A stretch of 64,000 nt of DNA from NCBI GenBank assembly GCA_949484645.1, contig CASYOT010000002.1, forward strand, positions 2,912-66,911. Reading direction: 5' to 3'. The notes under the pieces were generated by a model. It was given only the letters and a program-made list of their open reading frames with translations. It did not search any database and was not told the origin of the DNA. Source of the stretch: an uncultured Lachnospiraceae bacterium (GTDB lineage Bacteria > Bacillota > Clostridia > Lachnospirales > Lachnospiraceae). The translations under genes and the position numbers were made by a program. This document shows, piece by piece, positions 465 to 30,527 of the stretch (the first letter of the stretch is position 1; the number at the start of each line of letters is the position of its first letter).

Positions 465-806
465 ATGGAGGAATTTTCAAATTTATTGTGGCACAATATT
501 GAAATTGTTCAGTGCATTTGTAATAAAATCGAGAATCAGGAAGCGTACATTGAGGATATTCGGGGATACCTTCCTTCTCTTAATCAAATGATTACATCAA
601 TATTTACAAATATGCAGCAAGGGCAAATTTCTTTGGAATTGAATCAAGGCTTTATTATTCAGGCGCTAAATGATATTCTATATGGAATAGAAAATGAAGA
701 TTCTGTATTTTTGCTTGATGTATTGCGATATGGGTTATTAGAAATTTATGGATACATAAGTAGTGAACTGCAAAGTGAGGGCTGTTATGAATCAGTTAAT
801 ATATAA
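465..806 (+). CDS. hypothetical small protein (113 aa), first gene of island
   Basis: ORF with GGAGGGG RBS 7 nt upstream of ATG 465; overlaps the Maf-like gene start by 20 nt, which suggests translational coupling; no recognisable domain. Confidence 0.45.
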   Translation: MEEFSNLLWHNIEIVQCICNKIENQEAYIEDIRGYLPSLNQMITSIFTNMQQGQISLELNQGFIIQALNDILYGIENEDSVFLLDVLRYGLLEIYGYISSELQSEGCYESVNI

Positions 807-2685
807 AAAAAATCTGGAGGCGTTAAATGCGAAATATCCTATATGGGCGGCTCTTATAGACGGGGTAAAACGTAAAAAACGAAATTTCAATGTTGAAGCA
901 GAGCAGAGTTTCATGGGAGAAACTATTTTGAAAGTAACTCAAGATGGGAAAATGCGTTACTTAAATGGAAAATATGCTCCTTCGGCAGTAGTGGAACGTT
1001 GGTTTGAAAAACAGGGAAAAATAGAAGAATACGCGCCAATTGTGATAATAGGCATTTCAAATGGAGAACATATACGACAAATTATAGAACGCTCCCCAAA
1101 GACTTCTAATATTTTAATTTATGAGCCATCTTTTGAATTATTCCGCAGGGCGATGCAAGAAGTGGATTTAACATTTCTTTTTGAGATGGATATTCCGGTA
1201 GGGATTATTGTTGAGGGATTAAATGAAGATGAGTTAGAAGCTTTCCTTTATTTATTTATATCTTATGACAATATGGCTTTTCTTCGGTGGTATATTTCAG
1301 GGAATTATCAGGAATTATTTCCAAAAGAAGTGGAAGAATTTGTAGGACGTTTAAAGAATCATGTGTCACAAATCCATATTGGCTGGAATACAAAATTACG
1401 TTATACAAATGTCAGGGCAGTAAATGTATTTGTCAATCTGCCATATTTAGCAGATGGATACAGCATTCGGGAATTGTATGGAATGCTTCCGGAAGACGTT
1501 CCGGTTATTGTCGTTTCAGCAGGCCCATCTTTAAATAAAAACATTATGGAATTGAAAAAAGCAGTCGGGAAAGCCTGTATTATTTCAACAGATACTGCGA
1601 TAAAGCCTCTCTTAAATGCAGGAATCGTGCCGAATTTCTTTATTATTATAGATGGGTTAAAGCCGGAAGTGCTATTTCAACATAAGGATATATCTAAAGT
1701 TCCTATGGTGACTATGACGGCGGTTTCCACAGAGCCGATGTCATGCCATAAAGGGAAAAAATTCTTTTATGGCGCGGAGTCTGCATTTGAAGATGAACTT
1801 ACGGGAGATATAAAGAGGAGCCGTGACGAAGACAGTGACAGAGTGATACCGTTTCTTGTAACTGGCGGTTCTGTTGCGACTTCGGCATATGCGCTGGGTT
1901 TAAATATGGGAGCTAAGACAGTGATATTAGTGGGTCAGGATCTTGCAATGACCGGGAATAAAACGCATGCAGACGGTACATTTCAGGCGCAGATGGATCA
2001 GATTGACAAAAATAGCGGCGAATACTTTGAAGTGGAAGCTATAGATGGCGGCAAGGTTTTGACGAGACTTGATTTTGATATGTACCGTAAATGGTTTGAA
2101 GACCATTTTAAGCAGTGGAATCATGTCACAGTCGTAGATGCGACAGAAGGCGGAGCATTAATTCATGGAACGAAAGTAATGACTTTAAAAAAGGCAGTTC
2201 AAAAATATTGTGTGCATGAATTTAATGTAAAGTGGCATACGGATCGCTGCAAAAAATTATTTCAAGATGAACAGCGGGAAGTTGTGTTGGATTATTTTGC
2301 AAATTCCCTAAAAAAATTACAGGAAGTGAAGAAAAAAGCGACAGAAGGGATTCGTTTCTATGAACGTCTGGAGAAGATGGCGAAAAAAAGCTCGGTATCA
2401 GATCAGGAGCTTGGAAAGGCTTTGAAAAAAATCAAGAAATTAAATCATTATATGGAAACTGACTATATGGCGCGCACTGTTATGGATAGTTTAGATGGTC
2501 TAAATTTTACGTTAAGGCCGCTTGCTTATCAATTAAGAGAGGATAAACGGAGCGAGCTTTTAGATGTGGCTAGTCAGGGAAAAGTGCTACTTTACGGGGT
2601 GGCAGTTGCAGTAGATGAAGTATCTGAGATAGCGGAAAAGACGATTGTGCAGTACGCCAATTCCAACAGGACGAAACGGAAATAA
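787..2685 (+). CDS. Maf-family (motility accessory factor, DUF115/MptE-like) putative flagellin nonulosonic-acid glycosyltransferase
   Basis: N-terminus MNQLIYKKNLEALNAKYP resembles the Maf N-terminal signature; VIVVSAGPSLNKN matches the DUF115 GPSL motif; about 630 aa, typical Maf length; located next to flagellin. Confidence 0.7.
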   Translation: MNQLIYKKNLEALNAKYPIWAALIDGVKRKKRNFNVEAEQSFMGETILKVTQDGKMRYLNGKYAPSAVVERWFEKQGKIEEYAPIVIIGISNGEHIRQIIERSPKTSNILIYEPSFELFRRAMQEVDLTFLFEMDIPVGIIVEGLNEDELEAFLYLFISYDNMAFLRWYISGNYQELFPKEVEEFVGRLKNHVSQIHIGWNTKLRYTNVRAVNVFVNLPYLADGYSIRELYGMLPEDVPVIVVSAGPSLNKNIMELKKAVGKACIISTDTAIKPLLNAGIVPNFFIIIDGLKPEVLFQHKDISKVPMVTMTAVSTEPMSCHKGKKFFYGAESAFEDELTGDIKRSRDEDSDRVIPFLVTGGSVATSAYALGLNMGAKTVILVGQDLAMTGNKTHADGTFQAQMDQIDKNSGEYFEVEAIDGGKVLTRLDFDMYRKWFEDHFKQWNHVTVVDATEGGALIHGTKVMTLKKAVQKYCVHEFNVKWHTDRCKKLFQDEQREVVLDYFANSLKKLQEVKKKATEGIRFYERLEKMAKKSSVSDQELGKALKKIKKLNHYMETDYMARTVMDSLDGLNFTLRPLAYQLREDKRSELLDVASQGKVLLYGVAVAVDEVSEIAEKTIVQYANSNRTKRK

Positions 2686-2715: not shown

Positions 2716-2756
2716 AGCAGCGGGCGGCTGAAAATCAAATTTCAGCCGCCCGCGTT
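2716..2756. terminator. bidirectional rho-independent terminator between convergent genes
   Basis: Long perfect hairpin gcgggcggctgaaa-atcaaa-tttcagccgcccgc flanked by A and T runs, between the Maf stop (2685) and the minus-strand gene end (2766). Confidence 0.75.
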
Positions 2757-2765: not shown

Positions 2766-3749
2766 TTATTTTAGGTACTTGAACCAATCTTCCGTGGCAT
2801 CGACAATGGTATCCGGCGTCCATACAGGAGCTTTCCGCCAATAGTCAATGTTTTCAAGGACTTTGCTAACGCCATCTTCAAATGAGATTTTAGGCTCCCA
2901 TCCCAGAACATCATGAATTTTTGAAGTGTCAGCAAATGTGCAGTCGGGTTCTCCGGGTCTTTTTGGGATATTTGTGATTTCACCGCCCAATAGTTCACAC
3001 AGCCTGTTTATAGAGTAGGTTCCTCCGCTTCCAACGTTGAATGTGTCTTGTTTGATATCCGACATAGCGGCTGTATAAAAAGCGTCGACAATATCTGTTA
3101 CATATGTAAAGTCCCTTGTTTGAGTTCCATCTCCTACAACGGTAAATGGTTTGTTGGCTAGTTTTTGGGCTAAAAATACGCCAAATACAGCCCCATAAGT
3201 GCCGGAAGTCCTCGATCTTGTGCCATATACGTTGAATAGTCTCAAAGTAATCACAGGAAGACCGTAGACTTGCCCCCAGTGCAAGATGGTTTCTTCCCCT
3301 AATCTTTTTGTAAGGGCATAAGGATACTGTGGCCTGATTTCGGCTGTTTCTCTGGTAGGGTATTGGTCAGGAATGCCATAACAGGAAGATGAAGCGGCAT
3401 AAAGCAGCTTTTTGATATTTGTGTTTTTCGCGCATTCCACTACATTAAACGTTCCTAGGACATTAGAGGAGTAATAATCTTGAGGCCTCTGAATAGATGG
3501 AACGATGTCGGCTAATGCCGCAAAGTGGAAAATGTAGTCCACATCTTTAAAAATAGGCTGGATTTCCTCCTTATTTCGAATGTCCATTTGATAGATGCTG
3601 AGATTTTTGTGGCCTTTGAGGTGATCTAGGTTTTCTAATCTTCCAGTGCTTAAATTATCAATTACGCGGACGTCATGCCCTTCAGATAAAAGCCTATCCA
3701 CCATATGGGAGCCAATAAATCCGCACCCGCCTGTAACCAGTGACGTCAT
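2766..3749 (-). CDS. NAD-dependent epimerase/dehydratase family (extended SDR) nucleotide-sugar modifying enzyme
   Basis: N-terminal TGGCGFIGSHMVDRL Rossmann motif, catalytic YxxxK (YPYALTK), 327 aa; last gene of a gmhA-gmhB operon, so possibly a heptose epimerase or reductase. Confidence 0.75.
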   Translation of the reverse strand: MTSLVTGGCGFIGSHMVDRLLSEGHDVRVIDNLSTGRLENLDHLKGHKNLSIYQMDIRNKEEIQPIFKDVDYIFHFAALADIVPSIQRPQDYYSSNVLGTFNVVECAKNTNIKKLLYAASSSCYGIPDQYPTRETAEIRPQYPYALTKRLGEETILHWGQVYGLPVITLRLFNVYGTRSRTSGTYGAVFGVFLAQKLANKPFTVVGDGTQTRDFTYVTDIVDAFYTAAMSDIKQDTFNVGSGGTYSINRLCELLGGEITNIPKRPGEPDCTFADTSKIHDVLGWEPKISFEDGVSKVLENIDYWRKAPVWTPDTIVDATEDWFKYLK

Positions 3750-4309
3750 ATACTGTTTCCTTCCTTTCTTTCTAATATTTTAATAAAGTCCCTCAAATCT
3801 TTCAATGTATAATCGGGAACTACTATTTCTTCTAGGCGCGCAACTCCATAACCGGAATCAAGCAATACCGTTTTTAAGTTCGCATTTTCGCCAAGCCGTA
3901 TATCACATGCGCGATCTCCAACTACATAAGAGCCATTCATAGTTATTTGAAAATCTGAACAGGCTTTTTCTAACATACCTATAGCGGGTTTGCGGCAATT
4001 ACAATTAAAGGCATAGCCTTGTATCACGCCTTTTTGATGATGTGGGCAGTAATACACAGCATCAACTCCTGTCTCTTGTATGAGATATTGATTCATGGAG
4101 AGAAGCGTTTCTTCCGTGAAATAACCGCGCGCAATCCCGCTTTGGTTAGAAACGACAATCGCATAGTAACCATAAGTATGTATTTTTTCTATACAGCTTT
4201 TGGAGTATGGGAAAATTTCCAGCTCATTTGTGGAACGGATATAGCTTTTTTCTTTAGTAAGAACGCCATCTCTATCAAGGAAAATAGCGGGTTTTGCTTT
4301 CTTTTTCAA
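3746..4309 (-). CDS. gmhB: D-glycero-D-manno-heptose 1,7-bisphosphate phosphatase-like HAD-IIIA phosphatase (GmhB-like)
   Basis: FLDRDGVL HAD motif I, SNQSGIARG motif, about 187 aa, same pattern as GmhB/histidinol-phosphatase family; overlaps gmhA by 4 nt. Confidence 0.75.
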   Translation of the reverse strand: MKKKAKPAIFLDRDGVLTKEKSYIRSTNELEIFPYSKSCIEKIHTYGYYAIVVSNQSGIARGYFTEETLLSMNQYLIQETGVDAVYYCPHHQKGVIQGYAFNCNCRKPAIGMLEKACSDFQITMNGSYVVGDRACDIRLGENANLKTVLLDSGYGVARLEEIVVPDYTLKDLRDFIKILERKEGNSI

Positions 4310-4887
4310 ATGGATGCCCCTTCACTTTCTAATATCATATCTACTATTTGTTGTAAAATTAAATTATGGGCTGATTCCACAATGCCATATTTACTGCAAG
4401 GAGTATAGACGTTAATATCGCCTAATTGCCTTGCCTTATTGTCAGGGCTAAAACCTGTAAATGTAATGACTTTTGCATTTTTTGCTTTGGCTGTTTGAAT
4501 TGCATTGATAATATTTTGTGAATTGCCTGAACTGCTGATTGCCACGACTAAATCATCTTTTTTTACAAGAAAATCCATTGGTTTTGAAAATATATATTCA
4601 TAACCATAATCGTTGCCAATGCAGGTTGTCAAAGCGTTATCATACAGGTTATATGCGTTCATTTTTCCGTTTTTCATAAAATCTGCCGCCATATGGCTGG
4701 CAATGGCAGCGCTGCCGCCGTTTCCTACGAAAAAGAGATTTGAGCAGAAACGTTTATGTTCAAGAAAAACATCAAAAAGCATTTGGATGCCTTCTGTGTA
4801 GGTTTCGTGGTATGAACCGTCTTTTTTTTGTATTTTCGTTGATTCTAATGTTTGTATAAATGTGTTAATATAATTATTTTGCAGCAT
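4306..4887 (-). CDS. gmhA: phosphoheptose (sedoheptulose-7-phosphate) isomerase, SIS domain (GmhA-like)
   Basis: SIS-domain signature FFVGNGGSAAIASHMAADF, 193 aa, typical GmhA size; 4-nt overlap with gmhB. Confidence 0.8.
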   Translation of the reverse strand: MLQNNYINTFIQTLESTKIQKKDGSYHETYTEGIQMLFDVFLEHKRFCSNLFFVGNGGSAAIASHMAADFMKNGKMNAYNLYDNALTTCIGNDYGYEYIFSKPMDFLVKKDDLVVAISSSGNSQNIINAIQTAKAKNAKVITFTGFSPDNKARQLGDINVYTPCSKYGIVESAHNLILQQIVDMILESEGASI

Positions 4888-5496
4888 AATAATCGCTTCT
4901 TTCTGATAATTATTTATAATGTATTAGTATATCACAGGAGTATAGCATGTAACAAGAATTTTTTGTAATGATTCCTGTTATTGATTTCTGTTATAAATAA
5001 TAGAAATGGTTAGAATGAAATAATTCGTAAATGATTGTATTTAATATGTATAAAGTTAAATTAAGGATAAGCCGATAAAAAGAATAAGAGTTAAATTGCG
5101 TTTTCTATCAGCATGGAAGCTGTATTTTATTCAGGGAGGAAGAAGAAATGACGAAAAGGAAAGACATGCAGCGAAAAATTGCATGGGGGGGGAAAATCAG
5201 AATCTACTAAAAAGTGGAAAAAAATTCAAACTTTATATGGATTATCTCAAGAGACGTTAGGGGCAATTTTTTTGTTGCCTTTTTTTTGGTGTCTGCCGTT
5301 TGATCCGGTTATGGCTTGTAAAGGATATAAGTGTGTTGGGATAAGAATGGATAAGAATTGTTGGAAGGACGCCTATGTTTGAAACAAAGACAGCATGGGA
5401 AACGCAGTGAATATACTACAATTCTTTTTTTGCGTTTTATAACATTTTTTGCAACAGAAGATAATATGCCAAAATAGCTGGGAAGAAGGAATTAAA

Positions 5497-7077
5497 ATGA
5501 ATTTAGAAGCTGAATTTGAACGGTTAAAAACATGTTCCCGTATTTTGATTTGGGGCGGCGGTTATCATACGAAAGAGGCGCTAAGGTTTTATAAATCTTT
5601 TTTTAGGGAACGGGACATACAGATTGTAGATAAGAATAAGGCAGGCCAAAGCATAGAAGGATATAAAATTATTGCTTCAGATGAAGCAGATTATTCGATT
5701 GATTATGTTGTGATTATGTCGTCAATATACCATGATGAAATTGAATATGCTTTGCGGAACAGACATGGTTATCAAGGGGCAGTGATAGGTTTATATGCGT
5801 TTCGGAGAGTTCTTTTAAAACTGGATTCATATGAAGAATGTATTGGGCATATGGAAGATTTTGTGTCTCATATGGAACAAGGCATAGCAAGTTATTCTTA
5901 CGACTATATATTTCAAGAAAACTATAGCGTATATAAAAAAATAAGGCTATATGCGTTTTGGGCGTCTTCTATTGGTGAATCAGTCCGGTATTTATCGGCA
6001 TATTATGAAACTGTTTTTAAGGATAAGGCAGAAGATGAATACTGCCTGTTAATTCCCTATATAAAAGGGAATGATTTCGCGAATGGGCAATTTATAGAGG
6101 TTGTTTCCCGTACAGTTCCTATGGTTACATATTGCAACTGTCATTTTTGGGAGTATGCGGTGAAAAAGTACAGAGAGCGTTTTGATTTGACGTCTTATAA
6201 TGAATTTAACGGTATTTTAGTGGATGCATATAATCAATTTGATGAACGGATTATAAACAGGACGTTTTGTGATAAAAAGTTTCCTTTGATTGCCTATACG
6301 CCGGAAGAACGTAAGATGGCGGAATATAAATTAAGGCAAATGGGCGTTTTTGGAGATTTCGTGTGTATATTTGCAAGAGATAACCACTATTTGCAGCATC
6401 AGTATGGACAGGCTTATGGAATTAATGAAATAAGAAATATGGATATCAATTCTTTTAAATCTGCAGTGGATTATTTGGAGGGACAGGGAGTAAAGGCAGT
6501 CCGCATGGGAAAAGTTGTCAACGGGCCGGTCAATCTGCCAAACTGCATAGATTATGCGGCGGATTTCCATAGCGACTTTATGGATTTATATTTATGCGGT
6601 AATTGCAAGTTTTATGCAGGGAGTTTGTCTGGGATTGTTGCGCTTGCCCAGCTTCAAAGCGCGCCTGTGGTTTTGCTCGGGGTGGTTCAGCTGGGGATTC
6701 ACAATTCAATACCATATAGGAGCAGAGATATTTACGTCCCAAAGAAAATATATGACAAAAATAAGAAACGTTTTTTAAATTTTACGGAAATATGGGATGC
6801 GGAAATGGCCGCTAAGGACAAAATATCAAAATATTATGGGGAACACGGGCTTGAGTTTATAGAGCTTGGCAAAGAAGAAATAAAAGAAGCGATAGTGGAG
6901 ATGAACGATAAATTAGATGGAGTGTATCAGGAAGACGAACAGGAAAAAGAACTTCAAAAGAAATATCATTTGCTGTTGGAAAACTGGATATTAGAGAATG
7001 GATACCAGTATTCTTATTTCTTGCATATTGACATAAGCGGCAGTTTTATTAAAAAGAATACATTTATGCTTGCATAG
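5497..7077 (+). CDS. hypothetical protein with PglD_N-like Rossmann N-domain and large uncharacterised C-terminal domain (possible transferase)
   Basis: Start chosen at MNLEAEF with GAAGGA RBS (track start 5449 also possible); N-terminal RILIWGGGYHTKEAL...IVDKN resembles the N-domain of paralogs at 26583, 28033 and 30528; no confident family. Confidence 0.4.
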   Translation: MNLEAEFERLKTCSRILIWGGGYHTKEALRFYKSFFRERDIQIVDKNKAGQSIEGYKIIASDEADYSIDYVVIMSSIYHDEIEYALRNRHGYQGAVIGLYAFRRVLLKLDSYEECIGHMEDFVSHMEQGIASYSYDYIFQENYSVYKKIRLYAFWASSIGESVRYLSAYYETVFKDKAEDEYCLLIPYIKGNDFANGQFIEVVSRTVPMVTYCNCHFWEYAVKKYRERFDLTSYNEFNGILVDAYNQFDERIINRTFCDKKFPLIAYTPEERKMAEYKLRQMGVFGDFVCIFARDNHYLQHQYGQAYGINEIRNMDINSFKSAVDYLEGQGVKAVRMGKVVNGPVNLPNCIDYAADFHSDFMDLYLCGNCKFYAGSLSGIVALAQLQSAPVVLLGVVQLGIHNSIPYRSRDIYVPKKIYDKNKKRFLNFTEIWDAEMAAKDKISKYYGEHGLEFIELGKEEIKEAIVEMNDKLDGVYQEDEQEKELQKKYHLLLENWILENGYQYSYFLHIDISGSFIKKNTFMLA

Positions 7078-7126
7078 CATTCTGGCGGGAACAAAATTTG
7101 ATGAATAAACAGGGGGAATTTGAATT

Positions 7127-8188
7127 ATGGCAGATAAAATCCGAATGGATTCGCACAAATTAATTTATCATCCAGAGAGGGTTGCGGCTTGGAAGCGTGG
7201 AGAAAATATATATCCGATTGAATTGGAAATAGGATTAACAAACGCCTGTAATCATAGATGCATTTTTTGCGCAGTGGATTATACAGGTTACAAACCGACA
7301 ATGCTTGAGGCGGATCTTTTAAAATTAAGGATCAGTGAGTTTGCAGAAAAAGGAGTGAAATCTATTATATATGCCGGAGAAGGGGAACCGCTTTTAAATA
7401 AAGACGCGGCAGATATTATTAATTTCACGAAAAAAAGCGGAATAGATGCGGCGTTATCTACAAATGGAGCATTGCTTACGCCGGAAGCATCGAGAGACTG
7501 TCTGGCTTCTTTGACATGGATTCGTTTTAGTACGGCCGCAATTAGAGAAAAAACGTATGAGAAAATCCATCAATGCCGGAAAGGAGAGCTTAAAACTGTT
7601 TTAAATAATATTCAGGAAGCAGTCCGGACGAAAAAAGATCAAGGGCTCAAAACGACGATTGGCGCGCAATTATTGCTTCTGCCGGATAATAAAGATGAAG
7701 TTGTGGAGATGGCGAAGGAAATGAAAAAAATAGGAGTGGATTATTTTACGGTAAAACCATTTTCGCAGCATCCGTCAAGCGGCAATATCTTGCAAGTGGA
7801 TTATCAGGAATTACTGGAATTGGAACGGGAATTAGAAGGAATTGGAACGGAAGAATTTAAAATATATTTCCGGGCGCATTCTATGAAGAAATTGGCATGT
7901 GAGCGCGGTTATAAGCAATGTCTGGCGCTGCCATTTATGGTATACATTGATGCGAAGGGGAATTTATGGCCCTGTATTGTGTTTATGGGGCAGGAACAGT
8001 TTAGTTATGGAAATTTATATAATGCATCATTTGAAGAAATATGGGAAGGAGAGCGGAGGAAGAAGCTGATTCAAGAGTTTTCCCAGATGGATTTAGAGAA
8101 AAATTGCAGGGAGTTGTGCAGGCTGGATGAAATGAATAAGTATCTCAATGATTTGAGAAATCCCGGACTTCATGTAAATTTTATATAG
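7127..8188 (+). CDS. radical SAM enzyme (paralog A) with Cys-rich C-terminal region
   Basis: CNHRCIFC (CxxxCxxC) 40 aa from N-terminus; GEGEPLL glycine-rich SAM motif; C-terminal cysteines suggest an auxiliary cluster; ends in ...HVNFI like the paralog at 9995. Confidence 0.8.
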   Translation: MADKIRMDSHKLIYHPERVAAWKRGENIYPIELEIGLTNACNHRCIFCAVDYTGYKPTMLEADLLKLRISEFAEKGVKSIIYAGEGEPLLNKDAADIINFTKKSGIDAALSTNGALLTPEASRDCLASLTWIRFSTAAIREKTYEKIHQCRKGELKTVLNNIQEAVRTKKDQGLKTTIGAQLLLLPDNKDEVVEMAKEMKKIGVDYFTVKPFSQHPSSGNILQVDYQELLELERELEGIGTEEFKIYFRAHSMKKLACERGYKQCLALPFMVYIDAKGNLWPCIVFMGQEQFSYGNLYNASFEEIWEGERRKKLIQEFSQMDLEKNCRELCRLDEMNKYLNDLRNPGLHVNFI

Positions 8189-8238
8189 TATCCGTTTATT
8201 CCAATAGGAGAATAAATTTTAAGAGTTAGGAGAGAACG

Positions 8239-9084
8239 ATGGATTTAAAAGAGCGGGCGGCTGAAATAAGAAAAATGATTTTTAAAATGGCATACCGGGG
8301 AGGGAGCGGGCATTTGGCATCGGCTTTTTCGATTGTGGAAATTTTAACGGTTTTATATTTTGGGGGAATTTTAAATATAGATCCGAAAAATCCGGATTGG
8401 GCGCAAAGGGATAAATTGATATTAAGCAAGGGACACGCGAGTTTGGCATTATATAGTGTATTGGGTATGAAGGGATTTTTTCCACAAAAAGAGTTACAGA
8501 CTTTTTGCAAGCCGGGTTCAGAATTCGGAGGAGAACCCAGAATGGGGCATATAACGGGCGTAGAGGCGACTACAGGCTCGCTTGGGCATGGGCTTTCATT
8601 TGGCGTGGGGATTGCAATGGCGCATAAGATGAATGGGGAAGCGAACAGGACATATGTGATAATTGGAGATGGCGAATGCCAAGAAGGAAGCATATGGGAA
8701 GCTGTAATAGCGGCGCCGCACCACAAACTAGACAATTTGACAGTGATTTTAGATAATAACAGGCTACAGGCAATGGGGAAAGTGGAGGATATTCTTGCGT
8801 TGCGCCGCCTGCGGGAAAGCTGGGAAAATTTCGGCTGGGGCATCGCAACAGTAGATGGGCACGATATAGAAAAGCTTTGTAAATGTCTGGATAAGGACAG
8901 ACAAACGGAGGATGGCAGACCGCATTTAATTTGTGCGGATACAGTGAAAGGAAAAGGCGTTTCCTTTATGGAAAGCGAGCCCATCTGGCATTATCGGATG
9001 CCGAATGAACAGGAATTAGAAATTGTATTGCAAGATTTGGGCATGACAAGAGAGGAGCTGATTCAATGCGAAATGAATATTTAG
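8239..9084 (+). CDS. transketolase, N-terminal (TPP-binding) subunit
   Basis: GGSGHLASAFS, GSLGHGLSFGVGIAMA and IIGDGECQEG motifs of the split transketolase N-subunit; 281 aa. Confidence 0.9.
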   Translation: MDLKERAAEIRKMIFKMAYRGGSGHLASAFSIVEILTVLYFGGILNIDPKNPDWAQRDKLILSKGHASLALYSVLGMKGFFPQKELQTFCKPGSEFGGEPRMGHITGVEATTGSLGHGLSFGVGIAMAHKMNGEANRTYVIIGDGECQEGSIWEAVIAAPHHKLDNLTVILDNNRLQAMGKVEDILALRRLRESWENFGWGIATVDGHDIEKLCKCLDKDRQTEDGRPHLICADTVKGKGVSFMESEPIWHYRMPNEQELEIVLQDLGMTREELIQCEMNI

Positions 9085-9989
9085 CGGAACTATATCATCT
9101 TGCAAAAAATGATCGGAATGTGCTTTCTTTAGTGTCCGATAATGGCATGATTGTATATGATGAATTTCGGGCGGCTTTTCCAGAGCAATATTTTAATTTT
9201 GGCATTTCAGAATGCCATATGATTGCGGCGGCGGCAGGAATGGCGACATGTGGGAAAATTCCTTTTGCATATACAATTAGTTCATTTTTGGCGTACCGGG
9301 CATACGAATTTTTAAGGCTGGACGTATGTCTGGAAAATTTGAATGTAAAGATAGTTGGAATAGGCACAGGCGTATCTTATGGCTATTTAGGCCCTACGCA
9401 TCATACGACAGAGGATTTGGCTCTTTTGCGATCACTGCCTAATTTGACTATATTTTCTCCGGCAAGCCCAATGGAAGCGCGCGAGGCGGTACGGGCTGCA
9501 TATCAAATAAAGGGACCTGTCTATATCCGGCTTGGCAGCAGCGGGGAACCGGAGGTTCATACGGAAAAATTTTCTTTTGAAATTGGGAAAGGGCAGGTCA
9601 TATTTGACGGGCATGACATTGCGCTGATAACTTCAGGGGCAATCACGGCTGAAGCGAAAATAGCGGCGGAGCGGCTTATGGAAGAAGGAATATCAGTTAA
9701 GCTGATTAGTATGCACACGATAAAGCCTTTTGATGAGGATCTTATAGCAAAAACGGCTGAAAAGGTTTCTAAATTAGCTGTAATAGAAGAACATAATATT
9801 ATCGGCGGGTTAGGAAGCGCAGTGGCTGAGACATTAGCAGACAGGCAGATTGCAATTCCTTTTTATAGAATTGGGTTATATGATCAATTTGCAAAAGGCT
9901 ATGGAACGGGACAACAGGTACGGATGCAAAATAGGCTGGACAGTGAAGGGATTTATCAACAAATCAGCCAATATGTAAAGGAAGGATGA
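9066..9989 (+). CDS. transketolase, C-terminal (pyrimidine-binding) subunit
   Basis: FNFGISECHMIAAAAGMA and PTHHTTEDLALLRSLPN motifs of the split transketolase C-subunit; overlaps the N-subunit gene by 19 nt. Confidence 0.9.
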   Translation: MRNEYLAELYHLAKNDRNVLSLVSDNGMIVYDEFRAAFPEQYFNFGISECHMIAAAAGMATCGKIPFAYTISSFLAYRAYEFLRLDVCLENLNVKIVGIGTGVSYGYLGPTHHTTEDLALLRSLPNLTIFSPASPMEAREAVRAAYQIKGPVYIRLGSSGEPEVHTEKFSFEIGKGQVIFDGHDIALITSGAITAEAKIAAERLMEEGISVKLISMHTIKPFDEDLIAKTAEKVSKLAVIEEHNIIGGLGSAVAETLADRQIAIPFYRIGLYDQFAKGYGTGQQVRMQNRLDSEGIYQQISQYVKEG

Positions 9990-9994
9990 CAAAA

Positions 9995-11104
9995 ATGGAG
10001 TCAGAAAAATTAATATTAGACGGCAGTAAAGTATTATGGCACAAAGATAGAATAGAGCAATGGAAAAGGGGGGAGCGTTTTGCGCCTGTTACGATTGATT
10101 GCGCGCTGACTACGAAATGCAGTTACCGCTGTGTGTATTGTTATGGAAAAATGCAGTGCATAAACCAGTCGGATAATCTTGACGAAGAAACAATTTTACG
10201 CTTTTTAGAGGATGCGGCGGAAATAGGAGTAAAAGCGGTTAGTTTTGTAAGCGATGGAGAAAGCACATGTAACCCACATTTGAAAAAAGCGGTTTTACAT
10301 GGCAAGAGCCTTGGATTAGATATGGCTCTTGGCACAAATGGCTTTTTGTTAAAAGATGAGGAATTAGAGGAAATTTTGCCGGCGCTTACTTATCTGCGTT
10401 TTAATATATCGGCTGGGGAGAGGGAACGATATGCCGAAATTCATGGCTGCGCCTTAAAATGCTATGATAAAGTAATTGAAACGATGAAAAAAGCGGTAGA
10501 TATTAGGGAGAAGAAAGATCTGGCGGTTACAATTGGAATGCAAATGGTTTTAATGCCGGATTTTGCAGATCAGATTCTTCCGCTTACAAAGTTAGGCAGA
10601 GAGATTGGCGTGGATTATCTCGTGATTAAACATTGTAGTGATGATGAGGAAGGCACGCTTGGCGTAAATTACGAAAAATATGATGCCGTGATTCCGGTTT
10701 TAAAGGAAGCGGAAACTTATTCTACGGATAAGTATCAGGTTTCGGCAAAATGGTCAAAGATTTTAAGCCATGGGAAGAAAAGTTACTGTAAGTGTTTTGG
10801 AGCCCCCTTTATTCTTCAAATGTCGGGTACGGGCCTTGTGGCTCCTTGTGGAATGTTTTTCAATGAGAAATACAGTAAATACCATATTGGAAATATTAAG
10901 GAAAAGAGATTTAAAGAGATATTTGAAAGCGACAGGTATTGGGAAGTTATGAAAATGATAACAGACGAAACTTTTGATCCAAACCGCGATTGCGGTACGC
11001 TCTGTCTTCAGCATAAAACAAATGAGGCATTGTGGAAGATCTATCAAACAGGGACAATTCCAAAGAGTCCGGAAATTGAACCGAATCATATTAATTTTAT
11101 ATAA
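9995..11104 (+). CDS. radical SAM enzyme (paralog B of 7127..8188)
   Basis: CSYRCVYC CxxxCxxC motif; aligns along its length with the 7127 protein (KRGE..P..IDCALT..C.YRC..C, shared C-terminal ...INFI); start set to ATG 9995 for better RBS spacing (track 9986). Confidence 0.8.
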   Translation: MESEKLILDGSKVLWHKDRIEQWKRGERFAPVTIDCALTTKCSYRCVYCYGKMQCINQSDNLDEETILRFLEDAAEIGVKAVSFVSDGESTCNPHLKKAVLHGKSLGLDMALGTNGFLLKDEELEEILPALTYLRFNISAGERERYAEIHGCALKCYDKVIETMKKAVDIREKKDLAVTIGMQMVLMPDFADQILPLTKLGREIGVDYLVIKHCSDDEEGTLGVNYEKYDAVIPVLKEAETYSTDKYQVSAKWSKILSHGKKSYCKCFGAPFILQMSGTGLVAPCGMFFNEKYSKYHIGNIKEKRFKEIFESDRYWEVMKMITDETFDPNRDCGTLCLQHKTNEALWKIYQTGTIPKSPEIEPNHINFI

Positions 11105-11143
11105 ATTTCAGAAATCTGGAAAAATAAGCATGGAGGCTGAAAA

Positions 11144-12673
11144 ATGGCACTTGTTGTGACAAAAGCGGAATTTAGGAATATAAGAAAGGAATTGCGGGCG
11201 GAAGGGAAGAAAGTGGTTCTCTGCCATGGCGTATTTGATTTAGTGCATCCCGGCCATATCATTCATTTTGAAGAAGCAAAAAAGATGGGGGACGTTTTAG
11301 TGGCGTCTGTCACGGCGGCAAAATATGTGAGAAAAGGTCCGGATAGGCCGTATTTTGGAGATGAGATGCGTCTGAAATTTTTATCTTCGATTGCGTATAT
11401 TGATTATATTCTTTTGTCAGAGGGCTTTACTGTAGATGATATTATTGAAGCGGCGGAGCCGGACTTGTATGTAAAAGGCTCGGAGTATCAGGCGCAAGAA
11501 GATGACATTACCGGAAAGATTGCCGGAGAAATAGAGCTGGTCCGTAAACATGGAGGGGAAATTGCTTATACAGGCGGGCAGGTGTTTAGTTCAACGAAAC
11601 TAATCAACCATGCTTTTCCATCACTTTCTGAGGAAGTGAAACAATTTATGAAATCATTTTCAGATAAGTATAGTTTATCTGAAATCAGAGCGCTGGCGGA
11701 AAAAATTTCGGGCTTTAAGATAGCGGTAATTGGAGACGTAATTATAGATGAATATATTTATTGCAATGTACAGGGGTTAATGTCGAAAGACAGGGGATAT
11801 TCTGCCCGTTATAGATATGTGGAGCAGTATTTAGGCGGTTCGTTAGCCGTGGCGAGGCATATTGCCTCATTTTGTGACGACGTCACTCTTTTGAGCGTTG
11901 TAGGGAAAGAGGAGGCGGTACATAGCCGGATGTTAGACGAACTTGGCGATAAGATGAGGATAGACGTAACGTTTAGCGATGTTTTTGAAACCATTATAAA
12001 AACACGGTACGTTTCCATGAATGAAAAACGGGAAGAGCTTGATAAAATTTTCGCTGTAAATAACCTTCCTGTATATATGCGCATTGATAAACCTGCATTA
12101 GATAAGTTTAAAGAAAAAATAAAAGAGAAAATAGAACAGTGTGACGTGGTTATTTTGTGTGATTTTGGGCATGGGCTGATAGATGAAGAAGTGATGGATT
12201 TGATTCAGTCTAAGGCGAAGTTTTTAGCGTTGAACTGCCAGACTAATTCATCGAATTATGGAAAAAATTTAATTACAAAATATAAACGGGCAGATGTATT
12301 TGCGATTGACCAGAAAGAATTGGGGCTGGCATTTGCGAATTACCGTTTAGATGAGCAAGAGCTTCTTCAGAAGTTAGAAAAACATTTGGACTGCCATGGG
12401 TGGCTGACACAGGGATCCCAAGGGGCAGTTTCGATTGAAGATGGAGAAATAAAACATTGTCCGGCATTTGTTTTAAAAGTGAAAGACACCATTGGAGCAG
12501 GGGATGCGTTCTTTTCCATTGCAAGCTTATTTGCGGCAGCAGGCGCTTCCATGGAGATGGGAACATTTATGGGAAATATTGCGGGGGCATTGGCGACAAA
12601 TATCGTAGGAAACAAAAAAGGCATTGATAAAGTAGATGTACTGAAGTACGCTTCTACTTTACTTAATATATGA
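11144..12673 (+). CDS. bifunctional sugar-phosphate nucleotidyltransferase / PfkB-family sugar kinase (HldE-like with reversed domain order)
   Basis: N-terminal cytidylyltransferase-fold domain with the HxGH motif (CHGVFDLVHPGHIIHF), as in RfaE domain II; C-terminal PfkB ribokinase-like domain ending with the GAGDAF anion-hole motif; GGAGG RBS. Confidence 0.7.
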   Translation: MALVVTKAEFRNIRKELRAEGKKVVLCHGVFDLVHPGHIIHFEEAKKMGDVLVASVTAAKYVRKGPDRPYFGDEMRLKFLSSIAYIDYILLSEGFTVDDIIEAAEPDLYVKGSEYQAQEDDITGKIAGEIELVRKHGGEIAYTGGQVFSSTKLINHAFPSLSEEVKQFMKSFSDKYSLSEIRALAEKISGFKIAVIGDVIIDEYIYCNVQGLMSKDRGYSARYRYVEQYLGGSLAVARHIASFCDDVTLLSVVGKEEAVHSRMLDELGDKMRIDVTFSDVFETIIKTRYVSMNEKREELDKIFAVNNLPVYMRIDKPALDKFKEKIKEKIEQCDVVILCDFGHGLIDEEVMDLIQSKAKFLALNCQTNSSNYGKNLITKYKRADVFAIDQKELGLAFANYRLDEQELLQKLEKHLDCHGWLTQGSQGAVSIEDGEIKHCPAFVLKVKDTIGAGDAFFSIASLFAAAGASMEMGTFMGNIAGALATNIVGNKKGIDKVDVLKYASTLLNI

Positions 12674-12711
12674 TGATTCTAAAGATATATTTATAAAATG
12701 GAGGGTAAGAA

Positions 12712-14352
12712 ATGAAGATTTTGTTGGTGGTTCCGCAATACTATAGCCGGAAAGAACGATATTATCAAATGCCATTAGGCTTAGCGTATGTGAATGCAGC
12801 TCTGCGGGAAGCAAATTTAGATGTGCAATGCCTGAATATGAACCATATTGAAGCAGAAGACGCCTATTCAGTTTTAGCTGAACGGGTAGTAAATTCCAAT
12901 ATTGACGTTGTCCTTTGCGGCGGAATAAGCCCGCTTTGGAAAACGATTGAAAAAGTGTTTGATACAGTTAAAAGGGCAAAAGCTTCCATAATTACTGTGG
13001 GGGGGGGTGGAGCCTTTACGTCGGAGCCTCTTATTTCAGCGGAACTTCTTGAAGTAGATTATGCTGTAATTGGAGAAGGGGAGATTACAGATGTAGAGCT
13101 TATTCAAACGTTGATGGCGAATCAGAATGTAAGCAATGTAAAAGGAATTGTATATAAAACGCCGGACGGATATAGGCAGACGGCTCCGAGGGAAGAAATT
13201 GCCGATGTGGATTCCATTCCATTTCCATGCTATGAGGGGTTTGACATGGATTTATATTTAGAAAATCAAATGGTGAGCGATGAATATTATTCTTTTTATT
13301 CGGACAAGCCGAGAATTATGCCGATGATTTTAGGCAGGTCATGCCCTTATCAATGCAAATTTTGTTTTCACCCTATAGGAAATAAATACAGGGTGCGAAG
13401 TCTGGATAATTTTTTTATGGAACTGGATCAATGGAAGAATAAGTATGCTCCAACCTGTATTTTGATATTAGATGAATTATTTAGCGCAAGCGTTGAAAGA
13501 GTGTATGAGTTTTGTGAAAGAATAAAAGGATATGAGATAAAATGGATTGTCCAAATGCGGGTGGATATTATCACGAAAGAGTTATTGCAGACAATGCGGG
13601 ACGCCGGATGCCTCAGCATCAGTTATGGACTTGAAAGTTTTAGCCCTGCAGTTTTGAAAAATATGAGAAAACATATCTCTTTAGCAGACATAGAAAACGC
13701 TTTAAAATTGACTTATGAAGCAAAAATAGACATTCAGGGCAATTTTATTTTTGGAGACGAGTTAGAAAATGAGCATACGATATATGAAACATTGCGGTTT
13801 TGGTTTCAGCATCCAGAATATAAAATTAATTTGGGGTGGATAGAGACATATCCGGGATGCGGCTATTATCAGGAATTATCAAAAAATTGGAGCGTTGAGG
13901 AGAAAAAAGCATTTTTAGAAATGAGTGAATGGCTGACAAATTTAACAAAGATGCCAGATGAAGAATATGGGAAATATAAAGTTGTGATTCAACTGCTTAC
14001 ATTTTATTATAACCCAGATTGTGTGAAAGAAAAAGAGACGCGGACAGACGAAAATGGCGATGGGATTATTGAAGCGAAGTGCGTGCATTGCGGTTCGGTA
14101 AATCGGTGGGCAGGAGTTAAAAAATATCTGCTAAATCAATCGTATTTTAAATTATGCTGCCGGAAATGCAATCATAGGAATGTGATTTACAGCAGGAAAG
14201 AAAGGTTAAAAAATTGGGATTTAATTCTGCCATTATGTGAGAAAATGGCTTTGGCAACAAAGGAAGATGAATTTATTAAAGCGGTAAACGCTTTATATGA
14301 GACGTATATGGTGACGCATGACCCAGAAAATCCATTTCCTGTTTTGTTTTAG
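12712..14352 (+). CDS. B12-binding (class B) radical SAM enzyme, putative sugar C-methyltransferase or related
   Basis: N-terminal B12-binding-like region (MKILLVVPQYY...PLGLAYVNAAL) followed by CPYQCKFC radical SAM motif; 546 aa; contains an in-frame G9 tract at 12999..13007. Confidence 0.75.
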   Translation: MKILLVVPQYYSRKERYYQMPLGLAYVNAALREANLDVQCLNMNHIEAEDAYSVLAERVVNSNIDVVLCGGISPLWKTIEKVFDTVKRAKASIITVGGGGAFTSEPLISAELLEVDYAVIGEGEITDVELIQTLMANQNVSNVKGIVYKTPDGYRQTAPREEIADVDSIPFPCYEGFDMDLYLENQMVSDEYYSFYSDKPRIMPMILGRSCPYQCKFCFHPIGNKYRVRSLDNFFMELDQWKNKYAPTCILILDELFSASVERVYEFCERIKGYEIKWIVQMRVDIITKELLQTMRDAGCLSISYGLESFSPAVLKNMRKHISLADIENALKLTYEAKIDIQGNFIFGDELENEHTIYETLRFWFQHPEYKINLGWIETYPGCGYYQELSKNWSVEEKKAFLEMSEWLTNLTKMPDEEYGKYKVVIQLLTFYYNPDCVKEKETRTDENGDGIIEAKCVHCGSVNRWAGVKKYLLNQSYFKLCCRKCNHRNVIYSRKERLKNWDLILPLCEKMALATKEDEFIKAVNALYETYMVTHDPENPFPVLF

Positions 14353-14369: not shown

Positions 14370-15068
14370 TTAAATTGTGACATTAAAGTATTGTTGGGCC
14401 TTACAGTATTTTTTCTGCCTGTTTCTGATTAAGACACTGCCGTCAGGGTTACGCAGCACAACGGAATCATCGGAGACCGGCTGTCCATATACAAACGCAT
14501 CTACTCCAATGGATACACGGTTTCCGATTGGTTCATTGCCTATAATTTTAGCTCCGGCGGCTAAGTAGAGCCCTTTTCCGAGTTTTGGGACAGTTTCGCC
14601 GACAGGGCTTTCACCGGTATTGATGGTGACATTTTGGCCTATTACAAGAAAATCACTGTAAGCTGCATTGCCAATTACGCTTCCTACCGGATGTGTAAGG
14701 AAGAATATTTCCGGCAGTTTGCCTTTGTAAGAGATAAAAAAACTATGTAAAGTTTTATTCAAGTAAATTAATTTGTCACAGACAGATTTGTTTGCGGAAA
14801 GCTCCCACAGTGAGTTAGCCCAAAAATATAAAAACTGGGCATACTGGTCAGAATGCAGATGCGAGAAAAATGTTTCGCCTTGGTTATCTGAATATGCGGA
14901 ATTTTTAATAAAACGGAAGCAATGCTCTGTCCGTTCTAAGGCGCGTTCAAAAGCGGCGTCAACGTCGCTGCCTTTTAGAGTATGAGTATTGCGATCCGGA
15001 AAAAAAAGCTCTAACTGATGCAGCGTATATGTTTGAAGTTCTTGTTTCGGTAATGATAGGTTCATTTC
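14370..15068 (-). CDS. hexapeptide-repeat (left-handed beta-helix) acetyltransferase, serine-acetyltransferase-like
   Basis: C-terminal LbH repeats (VIGQNVTINTG...AGAKIIGNEPIGNRVSIGVDAFV) preceded by a helical N-domain as in CysE-like O-acetyltransferases; start set to the internal MNLSL with GGAAG RBS (track start 15182). Confidence 0.65.
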   Translation of the reverse strand, partial: EMNLSLPKQELQTYTLHQLELFFPDRNTHTLKGSDVDAAFERALERTEHCFRFIKNSAYSDNQGETFFSHLHSDQYAQFLYFWANSLWELSANKSVCDKLIYLNKTLHSFFISYKGKLPEIFFLTHPVGSVIGNAAYSDFLVIGQNVTINTGESPVGETVPKLGKGLYLAAGAKIIGNEPIGNRVSIGVDAFVYGQPVSDDSVVLRNPDGSVLIRNRQKKYCKAQQYFNVTI

Positions 15069-16033
15069 TTCTTCCTTTTTTGAATATAAATTGGCTCTAA
15101 AATAAAACGTGGGAGAATTGCGTATGGCCATACATGGAACCATATCGTAGGATATTTGTATGTATTTAAAAATAATATCCATTTATCGTCCATATCATAC
15201 TGATTATCCTCTACGCTGTATTTTAGGATAGAATCTTTAATAAATCCTTTCATGTCAGTAAGAAAGATTTTTTTCATCTGGCTTTTTGGAAAACCGGCTT
15301 TTACGGCTGTTTGGAGCAAAAGTCTTTTATATTGCTTTACCCAGACTTCAAATAAATTAAATCCGCCGCTGTTATTATTTTTTGCGGCTAAATAGGGGGC
15401 TTTTGTCAGGATCATTTTAGTATTTTTGCCTGAGAGAATGTGAAATACGATATGCGCGTGTAGAAAATGGGTTCCAAAATATTTCTCAGGATGCTTTATT
15501 TGTTTAAATTTGCTCATTTTCAGAACGGTTGCAGATATATACGTTACATAAACGCCAATGTAATTCATCAGAAGGGTTTTATCGTAAGTAATCAGATCGT
15601 TTGTTTCCCTAAGTTTTATTCTTGGCGCTTTTCTAATGTCCGGATTGAATGTCTGTGTTGAATATGTAAAAGAATTTATATTAATATAGGCTGGTCTTTC
15701 TGTTTTTATCAGATATAATATTTTTTTTATCGCTCCGGGCAGCAATATGTCATCGTCCGAGAGAAACTGTATATATTCGCCGTTCGCTTTTTGGAAACAG
15801 TTAAAAAAATTTTTATCCATACCCAAATTTTTTGAATTACGATAATAACGTATCTTATGTTCTTTGCAATATTTTTTCATTACTTTTGGGGTCTCGTCTG
15901 TGGAAGCGTTATCTGATACAAGGATTTCAACGCCGTCTTCCAACTGCCCTAGCGCGCTTTCTAATGACTGGCATAATAAATGACAGCGGTTATAGGTAGG
16001 GATAGCGACTGTCAGTATAATTTTTTGTCCCAT
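15062..16033 (-). CDS. family 2 glycosyltransferase (GT-A fold)
   Basis: IPTYNRCHLLCQSLESALGQ...VSDNASTDET...DDD motifs typical of GT2; start set to MGQKIIL with RBS (track start 16138 overlaps the upstream gene). Confidence 0.8.
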   Translation of the reverse strand: MGQKIILTVAIPTYNRCHLLCQSLESALGQLEDGVEILVSDNASTDETPKVMKKYCKEHKIRYYRNSKNLGMDKNFFNCFQKANGEYIQFLSDDDILLPGAIKKILYLIKTERPAYININSFTYSTQTFNPDIRKAPRIKLRETNDLITYDKTLLMNYIGVYVTYISATVLKMSKFKQIKHPEKYFGTHFLHAHIVFHILSGKNTKMILTKAPYLAAKNNNSGGFNLFEVWVKQYKRLLLQTAVKAGFPKSQMKKIFLTDMKGFIKDSILKYSVEDNQYDMDDKWILFLNTYKYPTIWFHVWPYAILPRFILEPIYIQKRKKK

Positions 16034-16037
16034 GATC

Positions 16038-16970: not shown

Positions 16971-16980
16971 ATTCTTCCTC

Positions 16981-17994: not shown

Positions 17995-18020
17995 CGTTGT
18001 ACCTCCGTGTGGTCTGCTTT

Positions 18021-19805: not shown

Positions 19806-19897
19806 CTTAACGCCCCTCCAAATTTAGCTTTCGATAATTCATAACATAATTTTATATTGTTATATGGGAATTGTAAATATATATTTCTGAAAATTGT

Positions 19898-20785: not shown

Positions 20786-20955
20786 AATGTCCTCTTTTCC
20801 GAATATACAATTTTAGTTACATTTAGGGGGATGCAGCAATTAAAAAACCCTAATACTATATCGGCAATTTTTGGGGAAACATGAGAAGCGGTTGTTACGG
20901 AAAAGTTATATTTGTCCGATATAAAAATAAAGTATGGGAAAGGATGAGGGGGAAA

Positions 20956-30469: not shown

Positions 30470-30527
30470 CGAGAAGAAATTTAGTTTTCAAGATGCAGAA
30501 GAAGTTTATATATATGGCGCATCTTAT

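Follow-up and report, generated by a model that had tools for sequence, protein, structure and literature searches.

A candidate route for remodelling nucleotide-activated heptoses that pairs radical-SAM enzymes with a split transketolase-like enzyme

What does a two-subunit transketolase do in a nucleotide-sugar gene cluster, set between two radical S-adenosylmethionine (radical-SAM) enzymes? The question is raised by positions 2,766 to 14,352 of a 64,000-nucleotide stretch (contig CASYOT010000002.1) from an uncultured Lachnospiraceae bacterium, the whole of which we call the window. An open reading frame (ORF) list combined with Pfam and NCBIfam scans of the window proteins gave the ten genes of a preliminary description of this locus at the same coordinates. 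The domain scans likewise bore out its outline of a GmhA-, GmhB- and HldE-like toolkit beside a cassette-specific split transketolase (TK)-like enzyme, two radical-SAM enzymes (rSAM1 and rSAM2) and a radical-SAM enzyme of B12 type (B12-rSAM). We propose that the cassette makes a nucleoside diphosphate (NDP)-heptose, that rSAM1 converts it to a carbonyl compound, that the TK-like, thiamine diphosphate (ThDP)-dependent enzyme adds a two-carbon unit, and that rSAM2 and B12-rSAM finish the product; our belief in this sequence of events and our doubt about it are evenly balanced. The genes of the module are:

2766..3749, minus strand: SDR1, an NDP-sugar epimerase-type short-chain dehydrogenase/reductase (SDR), GalE/WbpP-like (Pfam Epimerase, GDP_Man_Dehyd)
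3746..4309, minus strand: GmhB-like HAD-IIIA phosphatase, a homologue of heptose 1,7-bisphosphate 7-phosphatase (NF006506, 149.5 bits)
4306..4887, minus strand: GmhA-like SIS sugar-phosphate isomerase (TIGR00441, 90.8 bits; Pfam SIS, SIS_2)
5449..7077, plus strand: glycosyltransferase with a TIGR04372 domain (174.1 bits against a cut-off of 45)
7127..8188, plus strand: rSAM1, twitch-type radical-SAM enzyme (Pfam Radical_SAM and SPASM)
8239..9084, plus strand: tktN, N-terminal (PP-domain) subunit of the TK-like ThDP enzyme (Transketolase_N, 154.4 bits)
9066..9989, plus strand: tktC, C-terminal subunit of the TK-like ThDP enzyme (Transket_pyr and Transketolase_C)
9986/9995..11104, plus strand: rSAM2, twitch-type radical-SAM paralog (Pfam Radical_SAM and SPASM)
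11144..12673, plus strand: HldE-like bifunctional enzyme (CTP_transf_like N-terminal, PfkB C-terminal)
12712..14352, plus strand: B12-rSAM, radical-SAM enzyme with a B12-binding domain (PF02310, 46.7 bits; PF04055, 62.3 bits)

The split transketolase-like enzyme

Translation of tktC begins at 9066, preceded by a GAGGAG site, and the gene runs over the stop codon of tktN; for rSAM2 the most likely start is 9995, which lies five bases past the tktC stop and has GGAAGG ahead of it at 9980-9985. The overlap and the five-base gap suggest that these genes are translationally coupled. We aligned the pair with the structures 6YAK and 6YAJ, with human TK and with TktA of E. coli, placing the R358 and H261 regions by the 6YAK and human TK alignments, and counted residues over 167 C-subunit and 57 N-subunit sequences. 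The window enzyme is of the transketolase type, and belongs to the sequence family of neither the acetolactate synthase (ALS)-like flavoenzymes nor the E1 alpha/beta enzymes. Its closest solved relatives are the N chain of 6YAK (E 1e-70) and the C chain of 6YAJ (E 5.8e-67).

The residues that hold the cofactor and run its chemistry are intact across the family. In the N subunit the Asp of the GDG motif, N185 and H261 are kept in 57/57 sequences, H26 in 56/57 and H66 in 55/57; in the C subunit E411 is kept in 167/167 and H473 in 166/167. The substrate-facing residues have changed. In transketolases H461 and R520, like S385, bind the phosphate, and D469 reads the C2 hydroxyl of the acceptor. H461 is replaced by Gly and D469 by Leu, each in 166 of the 167 C subunits, and R520 by Asn, Thr or Ser in 155 (Ser in the window), while S385 has become a hydrophobic residue (Met, Leu or Ala) across the family. 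Furthermore, the loop DADLSKST reads SDNGMIVY in the window tktC, GHPG in the N subunit reads GH(L/I/M)A, and H100 varies (His in 32 sequences, Glu in 17, Glu in the window). To shift E. coli TK from phospho-sugars towards non-phosphorylated, non-hydroxylated acceptors, it is S385, D469 and R520 that have been mutated, and S385 is in contact with the phosphate of the substrate (PMC5073344).

Measured against what defines a transketolase, the pair thus has the ThDP/Mg2+ motif and the activating Glu but has lost three of four phosphate-binding residues as well as Asp469, and both subunits fall short of the equivalog NF004559 (262.8 bits for the N subunit and 202.9 for the C subunit, cut-off 488). 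Taken together, the replaced substrate residues and the failed cut-off point to a ThDP carboligase built on a transketolase scaffold and acting on a different substrate. Judged by its sequence, the pair is not the housekeeping transketolase, in agreement with its earlier description as dedicated to the module, and it most likely does not make sedoheptulose or octulose phosphate.

The last point bears on the logic first suggested for this locus, in which, as in the lincosamide Lmb pathway, a split transketolase acts upstream and supplies sedoheptulose 7-phosphate or octulose 8-phosphate to the GmhA-, HldE- and GmhB-like enzymes while the radical-SAM enzymes tailor the sugar independently. Something can be said for it: the nearest relative of solved structure, 6YAK/6YAJ, works as a split transketolase, the ThDP and catalytic His and Glu residues are intact, the equivalent of R358 seems to be kept, and the toolkit proteins are divergent enough that the chain length they handle is not fixed. 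The family-wide replacement of H461, R520, S385 and D469 speaks against it, as does the lack of a transaldolase domain in any ORF of the module or of the surrounding gene island. With the evidence from gene co-occurrence that follows, we consider this arrangement quite unlikely.

Recurrence of the cassette and exchange of its ThDP partner

An rSAM1 orthologue is present at 96 loci that came from searching one genome per species with rSAM1 and metagenome contigs with an alignment of rSAM1; 35 of these loci are long, with 6 kb or more of sequence to either side. As a cassette gene served as the seed and near-identical contigs are included, the counts below are not counts of independent events. 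The long loci carry the HldE-like gene (32/35), SDR1 (27/35) and GmhA (27/35) around rSAM1, the cassette's universal member. The TK-like pair is present in 27 of the 35, and all 27 also have a second twitch-type radical-SAM enzyme, which is either of the window's rSAM2 type or a member of a third paralog family, rSAM-X (40 members; identity to rSAM1 and to rSAM2 about 25%; C-terminal HINFI), which replaces rSAM2 in most cassettes (L004-L093). By contrast, cassettes without the pair (L006, L007, L009, L032 and L044; order gmhA-SDR1-hldE-rSAM1-DegT-Hexapep) keep GmhA, HldE and SDR1 at similar identity. The pair is therefore linked strictly to the second radical-SAM enzyme and not to GmhA or HldE, contrary to what is expected if it supplied their substrate.

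The arrangement in which a radical-SAM gene precedes and follows tktN-tktC, singled out in the preliminary description, does recur, but other orders occur besides the strict sandwich. Of the 53 loci in which the ThDP pair is complete, 15 have it between two radical-SAM genes and 28 read rSAM1-rSAMX-tktN-tktC; the window order rSAM1-tktN-tktC-rSAM2 occurs in nine loci, three of them with B12-rSAM. Reverse look-ups of TK-C homologues (P0156, P0236 and P0138) led to a cassette in 3/3 cases and those of rSAM2 homologues (P0386, from an Omnitrophica metagenome-assembled genome, MAG, and P0335) in 2/2, and in all five the TK-like enzyme was found only inside the glycan cassette. Cassettes are spread over Bacillota, Omnitrophota, Planctomycetota, Myxococcota and Bacteroidota, with rSAM2 still 65% identical to its Omnitrophica homologue; SDR1 is the most conserved cassette gene (78-85% identity among Lachnospiraceae). 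Recurrence of the gene set in dozens of loci and several phyla shows that the module is real and not a chance neighbourhood.

Cassettes of the rSAM-X type (for example L105, 4742-5809 and 8966-9628) mostly have a 220-aa class I methyltransferase 3' of tktC (28 loci), and DegT aminotransferase genes are common in them, so that different end products are expected. They also often contain a small cupin-like protein.

The ThDP enzyme itself can be exchanged. In seven loci (L014, L015, L074, L076, L084, L090 and L101) the TK position is taken by a pyruvate-dehydrogenase-type E1alpha (PF00676, 207-232 bits), followed by E1beta (NF006667, 258 bits) wherever the contig continues; the order in L074 is rSAM1-E1alpha-E1beta-rSAM2. 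Enzymes of this type cannot make ketose phosphates, and their presence in the slot is a further argument against a supply of ketose phosphate to GmhA. Moreover, an exhaustive search of 1.84 billion representatives yielded 502 rSAM1-family clusters (50% identity, E <=1e-30), among which P0404 has an ALS/YerE-type ThDP enzyme fused to the rSAM1-like domain, again at odds with such a supply role. The TK-like, E1 alpha/beta and ALS-like partners thus represent three unrelated ThDP architectures that pair with the rSAM1 family. Enzymes of the last two kinds are known for two-carbon branching of NDP-keto-sugars from pyruvate, by AviB1/B2 and Pau11/12 (E1alpha/beta-like) and by YerE (ALS-like), in part demonstrated and in part proposed (PMC4753412).

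Further fusions tie the family to sugar nucleotides. A cytidylyltransferase-like nucleotidyltransferase is fused to the radical-SAM domain in P0390, P0401 and P0425, which links the radical-SAM enzyme physically to the enzyme that makes the nucleotide sugar; a SIS domain is fused to it in P0413 and a class I methyltransferase in P0399. P0500 belongs to the same group, in which one member carries an intein-splicing domain. Between the lost substrate residues, the covariation with a second radical-SAM enzyme, the E1alpha replacement and the missing LmbR-type transaldolase, the earlier idea that the transketolase builds a ketose phosphate for GmhA is not supported.

Radical chemistry, the proposed pathway and its alternatives

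That rSAM1 and rSAM2 are paralogs, as first noticed from their motifs, is confirmed by 27% identity over the full length (E 3e-53) and by a common CX3CX2C motif, four C-terminal Cys (C265, C283, C327 and C331) and an NFI end, which belongs to a conserved H(V/I)NFI. C41, C45 and C48, together with the four C-terminal Cys, are invariant in four radical-SAM paralogs of the window and in their families. With only four C-terminal Cys, one auxiliary Fe-S cluster of the twitch-like kind is expected and not a seven-Cys SPASM arrangement, though the Pfam SPASM model is matched. Neither enzyme falls in a curated NCBIfam family, and TIGR04426 (rSAM_desII, cut-off 450) is missed by far (38.0 bits for rSAM1, 33.9 for rSAM2). 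Structure models of both come nearest to DesII and BlsE, at 15-17% sequence identity; the suspicion that the two are sugar enzymes thus finds a sugar-modifying pair as nearest structures and no curated non-sugar family to oppose it. DesII acts on a thymidine diphosphate (TDP)-sugar as a dehydrogenase or deaminase, and the alpha-hydroxyalkyl radical formed at C3' becomes a ketone (PMC11434129).

B12-rSAM has its B12-binding domain N-terminal of the radical-SAM core, the domain layout of the class B (cobalamin) radical-SAM methyltransferases. Its NCBIfam matches are all below cut-off (BchE 130, HpnJ 112 and PhpK 97 bits) and its best Protein Data Bank (PDB) match is AprD4 (6FD2, E 4.3e-14). Given that AprD4 is a non-methylating diol dehydratase, methylation is not assured, and both a C-methylase and an AprD4-like dehydratase are candidate roles. 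Homologues sit between tktN and tktC in L103/L104 (8334-9980) and also in L027, and a 639-aa B12-binding radical-SAM protein, alike by domain type, heads the cassette in L108 (2200-4119). B12-rSAM is a recurrent accessory and not a chance neighbour.

The toolkit proteins resemble the enzymes of NDP-heptose synthesis at a distance. The GmhA-like protein has the GNGGS motif and the C-terminal His and matches Pfam SIS, with a TIGR00441 score below the equivalog cut-off of 209.45; the GmhB-like protein is below the NF006506 cut-off of 178 and passes the domain cut-offs of TIGR01656 (histidinol-phosphatase type) and TIGR01662 (HAD-IIIA). The HldE-like enzyme is likewise below cut-off for NF008454 (150.5 bits), TIGR02198 (rfaE domain I, 119.7) and TIGR02199 (domain II, 91.3), and its domain order is reversed, with the nucleotidyltransferase N-terminal and the PfkB kinase, bearing a GAGD motif, C-terminal; its PDB matches are heptose 7-phosphate kinase 4E84 and cytidylyltransferases. 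Assignment of the nucleotide by way of the STTR5 motif of nucleotide promiscuity (PMC11573728) was ruled out, the motif being absent and the HldE-like enzyme reading VFSSTK. By homology, then, the three proteins would build an NDP-heptose.

The closest PDB matches of SDR1 are UDP-hexose 4-epimerases and UXS, and it carries the epimerase-type signature ASSSCYG...YALTK. A role as 4,6-dehydratase was rejected on account of the missing TDE motif, which leaves rSAM1 as the sole candidate for making the carbonyl. Independent support for that assignment comes from the TK-less cassettes, where DegT directly follows rSAM1 and a hexapeptide acyltransferase comes next or one to two genes on, the standard follow-up to a keto-sugar.

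On this basis the pathway would begin with conversion of sedoheptulose 7-phosphate to heptose 7-phosphate by the GmhA-like isomerase. The PfkB half of the HldE-like enzyme would phosphorylate C1, the GmhB-like phosphatase would remove the 7-phosphate, and SDR1 may epimerise the sugar. From its fold, the fusions and its context, rSAM1 is predicted to abstract a carbinol hydrogen of the NDP-heptose and, by dehydrogenation or diol dehydration (compare DesII and AprD4), to give a keto or aldehyde compound. By analogy with YerE and AviB1/AviB2, the TK-like enzyme would add a two-carbon unit to that carbonyl and form a branched or chain-extended C9 sugar. rSAM2 and B12-rSAM might then carry out further radical tailoring (deoxygenation, epimerisation, decarboxylation or C-methylation), and the TIGR04372 glycosyltransferase would transfer the product, with a flagellin glycan as the putative destination. 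The chemistry of carbonyl formation, C2 addition and finishing we infer from gene content, residue substitutions, co-occurrence, fusions and folds. Of the products that the preliminary description considered, a C-methylated, deoxygenated or epimerised heptose is possible, and a C2-extended or C2-branched (C9) sugar looks more likely than an octose.

Several observations weigh against this pathway. No toolkit protein reaches its NCBIfam equivalog cut-off, which leaves room for a sugar other than a heptose. The structure model of rSAM1 has moderate confidence (pLDDT 78.8), some families of SDR1-type enzymes can release 4-keto products, and TK-type enzymes normally accept aldehydes, not ketones. 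The variability of H100 means that the donor may be a ketol or pyruvate. R358 appears to be kept (MRNEYL); one ligand of the phosphate may thus survive, and a phospho-ketose could serve as donor. The non-independence of the locus counts belongs on the same side of the scale.

In a more specific version, rSAM1 could make an aldehyde from the terminal C6-C7 diol or the C7 alcohol of the NDP-heptose, and the phosphate-blind TK-like enzyme could add a ketol to it, giving a linear nine-carbon sugar nucleotide. Deoxygenation, cyclisation or methylation by rSAM2 and B12-rSAM would follow and yield something akin to higher sugars such as caryose or erwiniose, for which we know of no described biosynthesis. 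As far as we are aware, all known nonulosonic acids arise by NeuB-type aldol condensation, which such a route would bypass. We regard this version as speculative and unlikely.

Three other accounts were considered. The radical-SAM enzymes could be epimerases or deoxygenases and the TK-like enzyme the source of an independent C2 substituent (acyl or glycolyl) that decorates the glycan, as in the case of QncN/L, or it could act on a non-sugar substrate. Glycolyl transfer of the QncN/L kind was set aside when no acyl carrier protein, lipoyl protein or E2 partner was found in the module, including the intergenic region 4888-5448, or in its relatives. Such decoupling would also leave unexplained why ThDP enzymes are fused or translationally coupled to radical-SAM enzymes, and DegT follows rSAM1 in cassettes that have no TK-like pair; we consider it unlikely.

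Alternatively, a DesI/DesII-type course might apply, in which DegT makes an amino-deoxy NDP-heptose, rSAM1 deaminates it to a 3-keto-4-deoxy sugar and ThDP-dependent branching follows. In its favour, no structure matches better than DesII, TK-less and many rSAM-X cassettes have a DegT gene alongside, and aldgarose offers a precedent, the DesII product there passing to an E1alpha/beta enzyme. Neither the window module nor the other rSAM2-type cassettes contain an aminotransferase, DegT being confined to variant cassettes; SDR1 has no 4,6-dehydratase motif such as would be needed to feed DesI, and the TIGR04426 score of rSAM1 is a small fraction of the cut-off. This makes the course very improbable for the window.

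Finally, the TK-like enzyme might run the other way and remove two carbons from a heptose oxidised by the radical-SAM enzyme, shortening the chain. Transketolase chemistry is reversible, and the side chain of a 6-keto-heptose would resemble a ketol donor. The ring oxygen at C5 would block the normal donor geometry, which makes the reaction chemically awkward; the E1alpha/beta replacements are decarboxylating carboligases and do not cleave ketols; and building a heptose only to trim it has no clear purpose. We find this scarcely credible. Addition of a two-carbon unit to a carbonyl made by rSAM1 is accordingly the reading that we carry forward.

The flagellin-glycosylation island and comparison with known systems

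The placement of the module in a flagellin-glycosylation island, as first described, agrees with what lies on its two sides. Upstream are:

763..2685, plus strand: maf-like flagellin glycosyltransferase (PF01973, MptE-like, 119.8 bits; weak Maf_flag10_N)
2720..2753, both strands: strong bidirectional intrinsic terminator (14-bp stem, 10 GC pairs) between maf and the convergent SDR1-gmhB-gmhA operon

The maf-like gene marks the island as one of flagellin glycosylation. Homologues of maf adjoin the cassette in L005, L008, L041, L071 and L082, and in L106 the cassette abuts flgB/C-fliE/F/G. A large glycosyltransferase gene stands directly 5' of rSAM1 in L001, L002, L103 and L106 as it does in the window, where the TIGR04372 protein is the candidate transferase for the cassette product. 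Downstream, the island extends for about 50 kb and holds complete pseudaminic-acid and complete legionaminic-acid-like gene sets, which span 25571-26572, 38187-44047 and 48186-55020. The former comprises PseB, PseF, NeuB/PseI, PseG, PseC and a PseH-like protein, the latter a hexapeptide transferase, NeuB, a 2-epimerase, a CMP-transferase, a CBS-nucleotidyltransferase and LegB-like and LegC-like proteins. Genes of one more set, of the NDP-hexose dehydratase/aminotransferase kind, occupy 44129-48145.

The combination of a radical-SAM and a ThDP enzyme occurs again in the island. A second module (14370-20785, minus strand) contains a radical-SAM/SPASM enzyme (16981-17994; rSAM3, about 20% identical to rSAM1) and an ALS-like ThDP enzyme (18021-19805), along with two SDRs, a GT2 glycosyltransferase and an acetyltransferase-like protein, an architecture of the YerE type. 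At a third site (29423-36845), embedded among pseudaminic-acid genes and near an aldo-keto reductase and methyltransferases, a radical-SAM/SPASM enzyme (29423-30469) is followed by an ALS-like ThDP enzyme (34126-35937) with three ORFs between them. The island thus holds three ThDP enzymes, two directly beside a radical-SAM enzyme and one three genes off.

Four large ORFs of the island (485, 476, 409 and 586 aa; 26583-29463, 30528-31757 and 20881-22641) have no Pfam or NCBIfam match; in Butyrivibrio (L005) a gene next to the cassette encodes a relative of the 586-aa protein at 28% identity. An FMN riboswitch (RF00050, 55963-56124, plus strand, 82.1 bits), the sole Rfam match in the window, marks the end of the island, and the ORFs 3' of it (56232-59295) presumably form a riboflavin operon; the same scan of the window found no TPP, cobalamin or SAM riboswitch near the module. 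The island has a GC content of about 0.38, and past 56 kb this climbs to 0.47-0.50. GC skew is positive in all 2-kb bins (cumulative 7.7) and most genes are on the plus strand, consistent with a leading-strand location. A promoter scan of the window gave no more matches than chance (58 found, 52.7 expected); a perfect sigma-70 consensus (TTGACA-16-TATAAT, 399-426) lies upstream of a small ORF and maf.

Close homologues of the cassette proteins are annotated as Lachnospiraceae, Roseburia and Butyrivibrio, and proteins identical to those of the window (rSAM1, MCI9426231.1, and the HldE-like enzyme, MCI9426227.1, from an 'Eubacterium sp.' MAG) are found on 420 and 367 public contigs, respectively. 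With window proteins on some 400 public gut 'Eubacterium sp.' contigs, the product is probably displayed on the flagellin of a dominant human commensal. Flagellin glycans and NDP-heptoses, which are ALPK1 agonists, bear on host recognition, and the linear nine-carbon sugar, if it exists, would be carried on the flagella of Lachnospiraceae that are very abundant in the human gut. More broadly, the cassette points to a phylum-spanning, uncharacterised remodelling route for nucleotide-activated heptoses that pairs radical-SAM chemistry with a ThDP carboligase. Its TK-like enzyme would be a natural transketolase scaffold retuned at S385, D469 and R520, the positions chosen by engineers, and at H461, and as such would be useful for biocatalysis. 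Full-text searches of the literature found no description of the cassette, and no curated NCBIfam family captures the radical-SAM enzymes, the TK-like enzyme or B12-rSAM.

Each part of the proposal has a known counterpart from which it departs. The ADP-heptose pathway (GmhA-HldE-GmhB, with HldD) shares with the window the SIS isomerase, the PfkB kinase, the HAD-IIIA phosphatase and the cytidylyltransferase-like nucleotidyltransferase, whereas the window toolkit is below the equivalog cut-offs, reverses the HldE order, is without the STTR5 motif, has a GalE/WbpP-type SDR in place of HldD and belongs to a Gram-positive Lachnospiraceae host in which the product would go to flagellin and not to lipopolysaccharide. 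The lincosamide octose pathway (LmbR/N/P/K/O) similarly puts GmhA-, HldE- and GmhB-like enzymes to work on a higher ketose phosphate; it needs the transaldolase LmbR, absent here, while the window's TK-like enzyme lacks the phospho-sugar residues and is coupled to the radical-SAM enzymes and not to GmhA. The split transketolase of Carboxydothermus hydrogenoformans (6YAK/6YAJ) has the same two subunits, ThDP/Mg motif, activating Glu, H26, H66, H261 and H473, but in the window family, unlike that enzyme and canonical transketolases, S385, H461, D469 and R520 are replaced and GHPG has become GH(L/I/M).

For the steps beyond the heptose, the structures that come closest are those of DesII (TDP-4-amino-4,6-dideoxyglucose deaminase/dehydrogenase) and BlsE (cytosylglucuronate decarboxylase), which carry out radical chemistry on a nucleotide-linked sugar; the window enzymes differ from them in their low identity, their four extra C-terminal Cys, their H(V/I)NFI end and their failure against TIGR04426. 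YerE, AviB1/AviB2 and Pau11/Pau12 share the proposed C2 addition to a nucleotide-sugar carbonyl, and relatives of the cassette have E1- and ALS-like enzymes in the corresponding position or joined to the radical-SAM enzyme in one protein; the window enzyme is by contrast of the TK type, its substrate would be derived from a heptose, and we propose a radical-SAM enzyme, not an NAD-dependent 4,6-dehydratase, as the source of the carbonyl. NDP-heptose synthesis, radical tailoring of NDP-sugars and ThDP-dependent C2 branching are therefore all precedented chemistries, while the phosphate-blind transketolase scaffold, its obligatory radical-SAM partnership and the heptose substrate are the elements that we rate as new.

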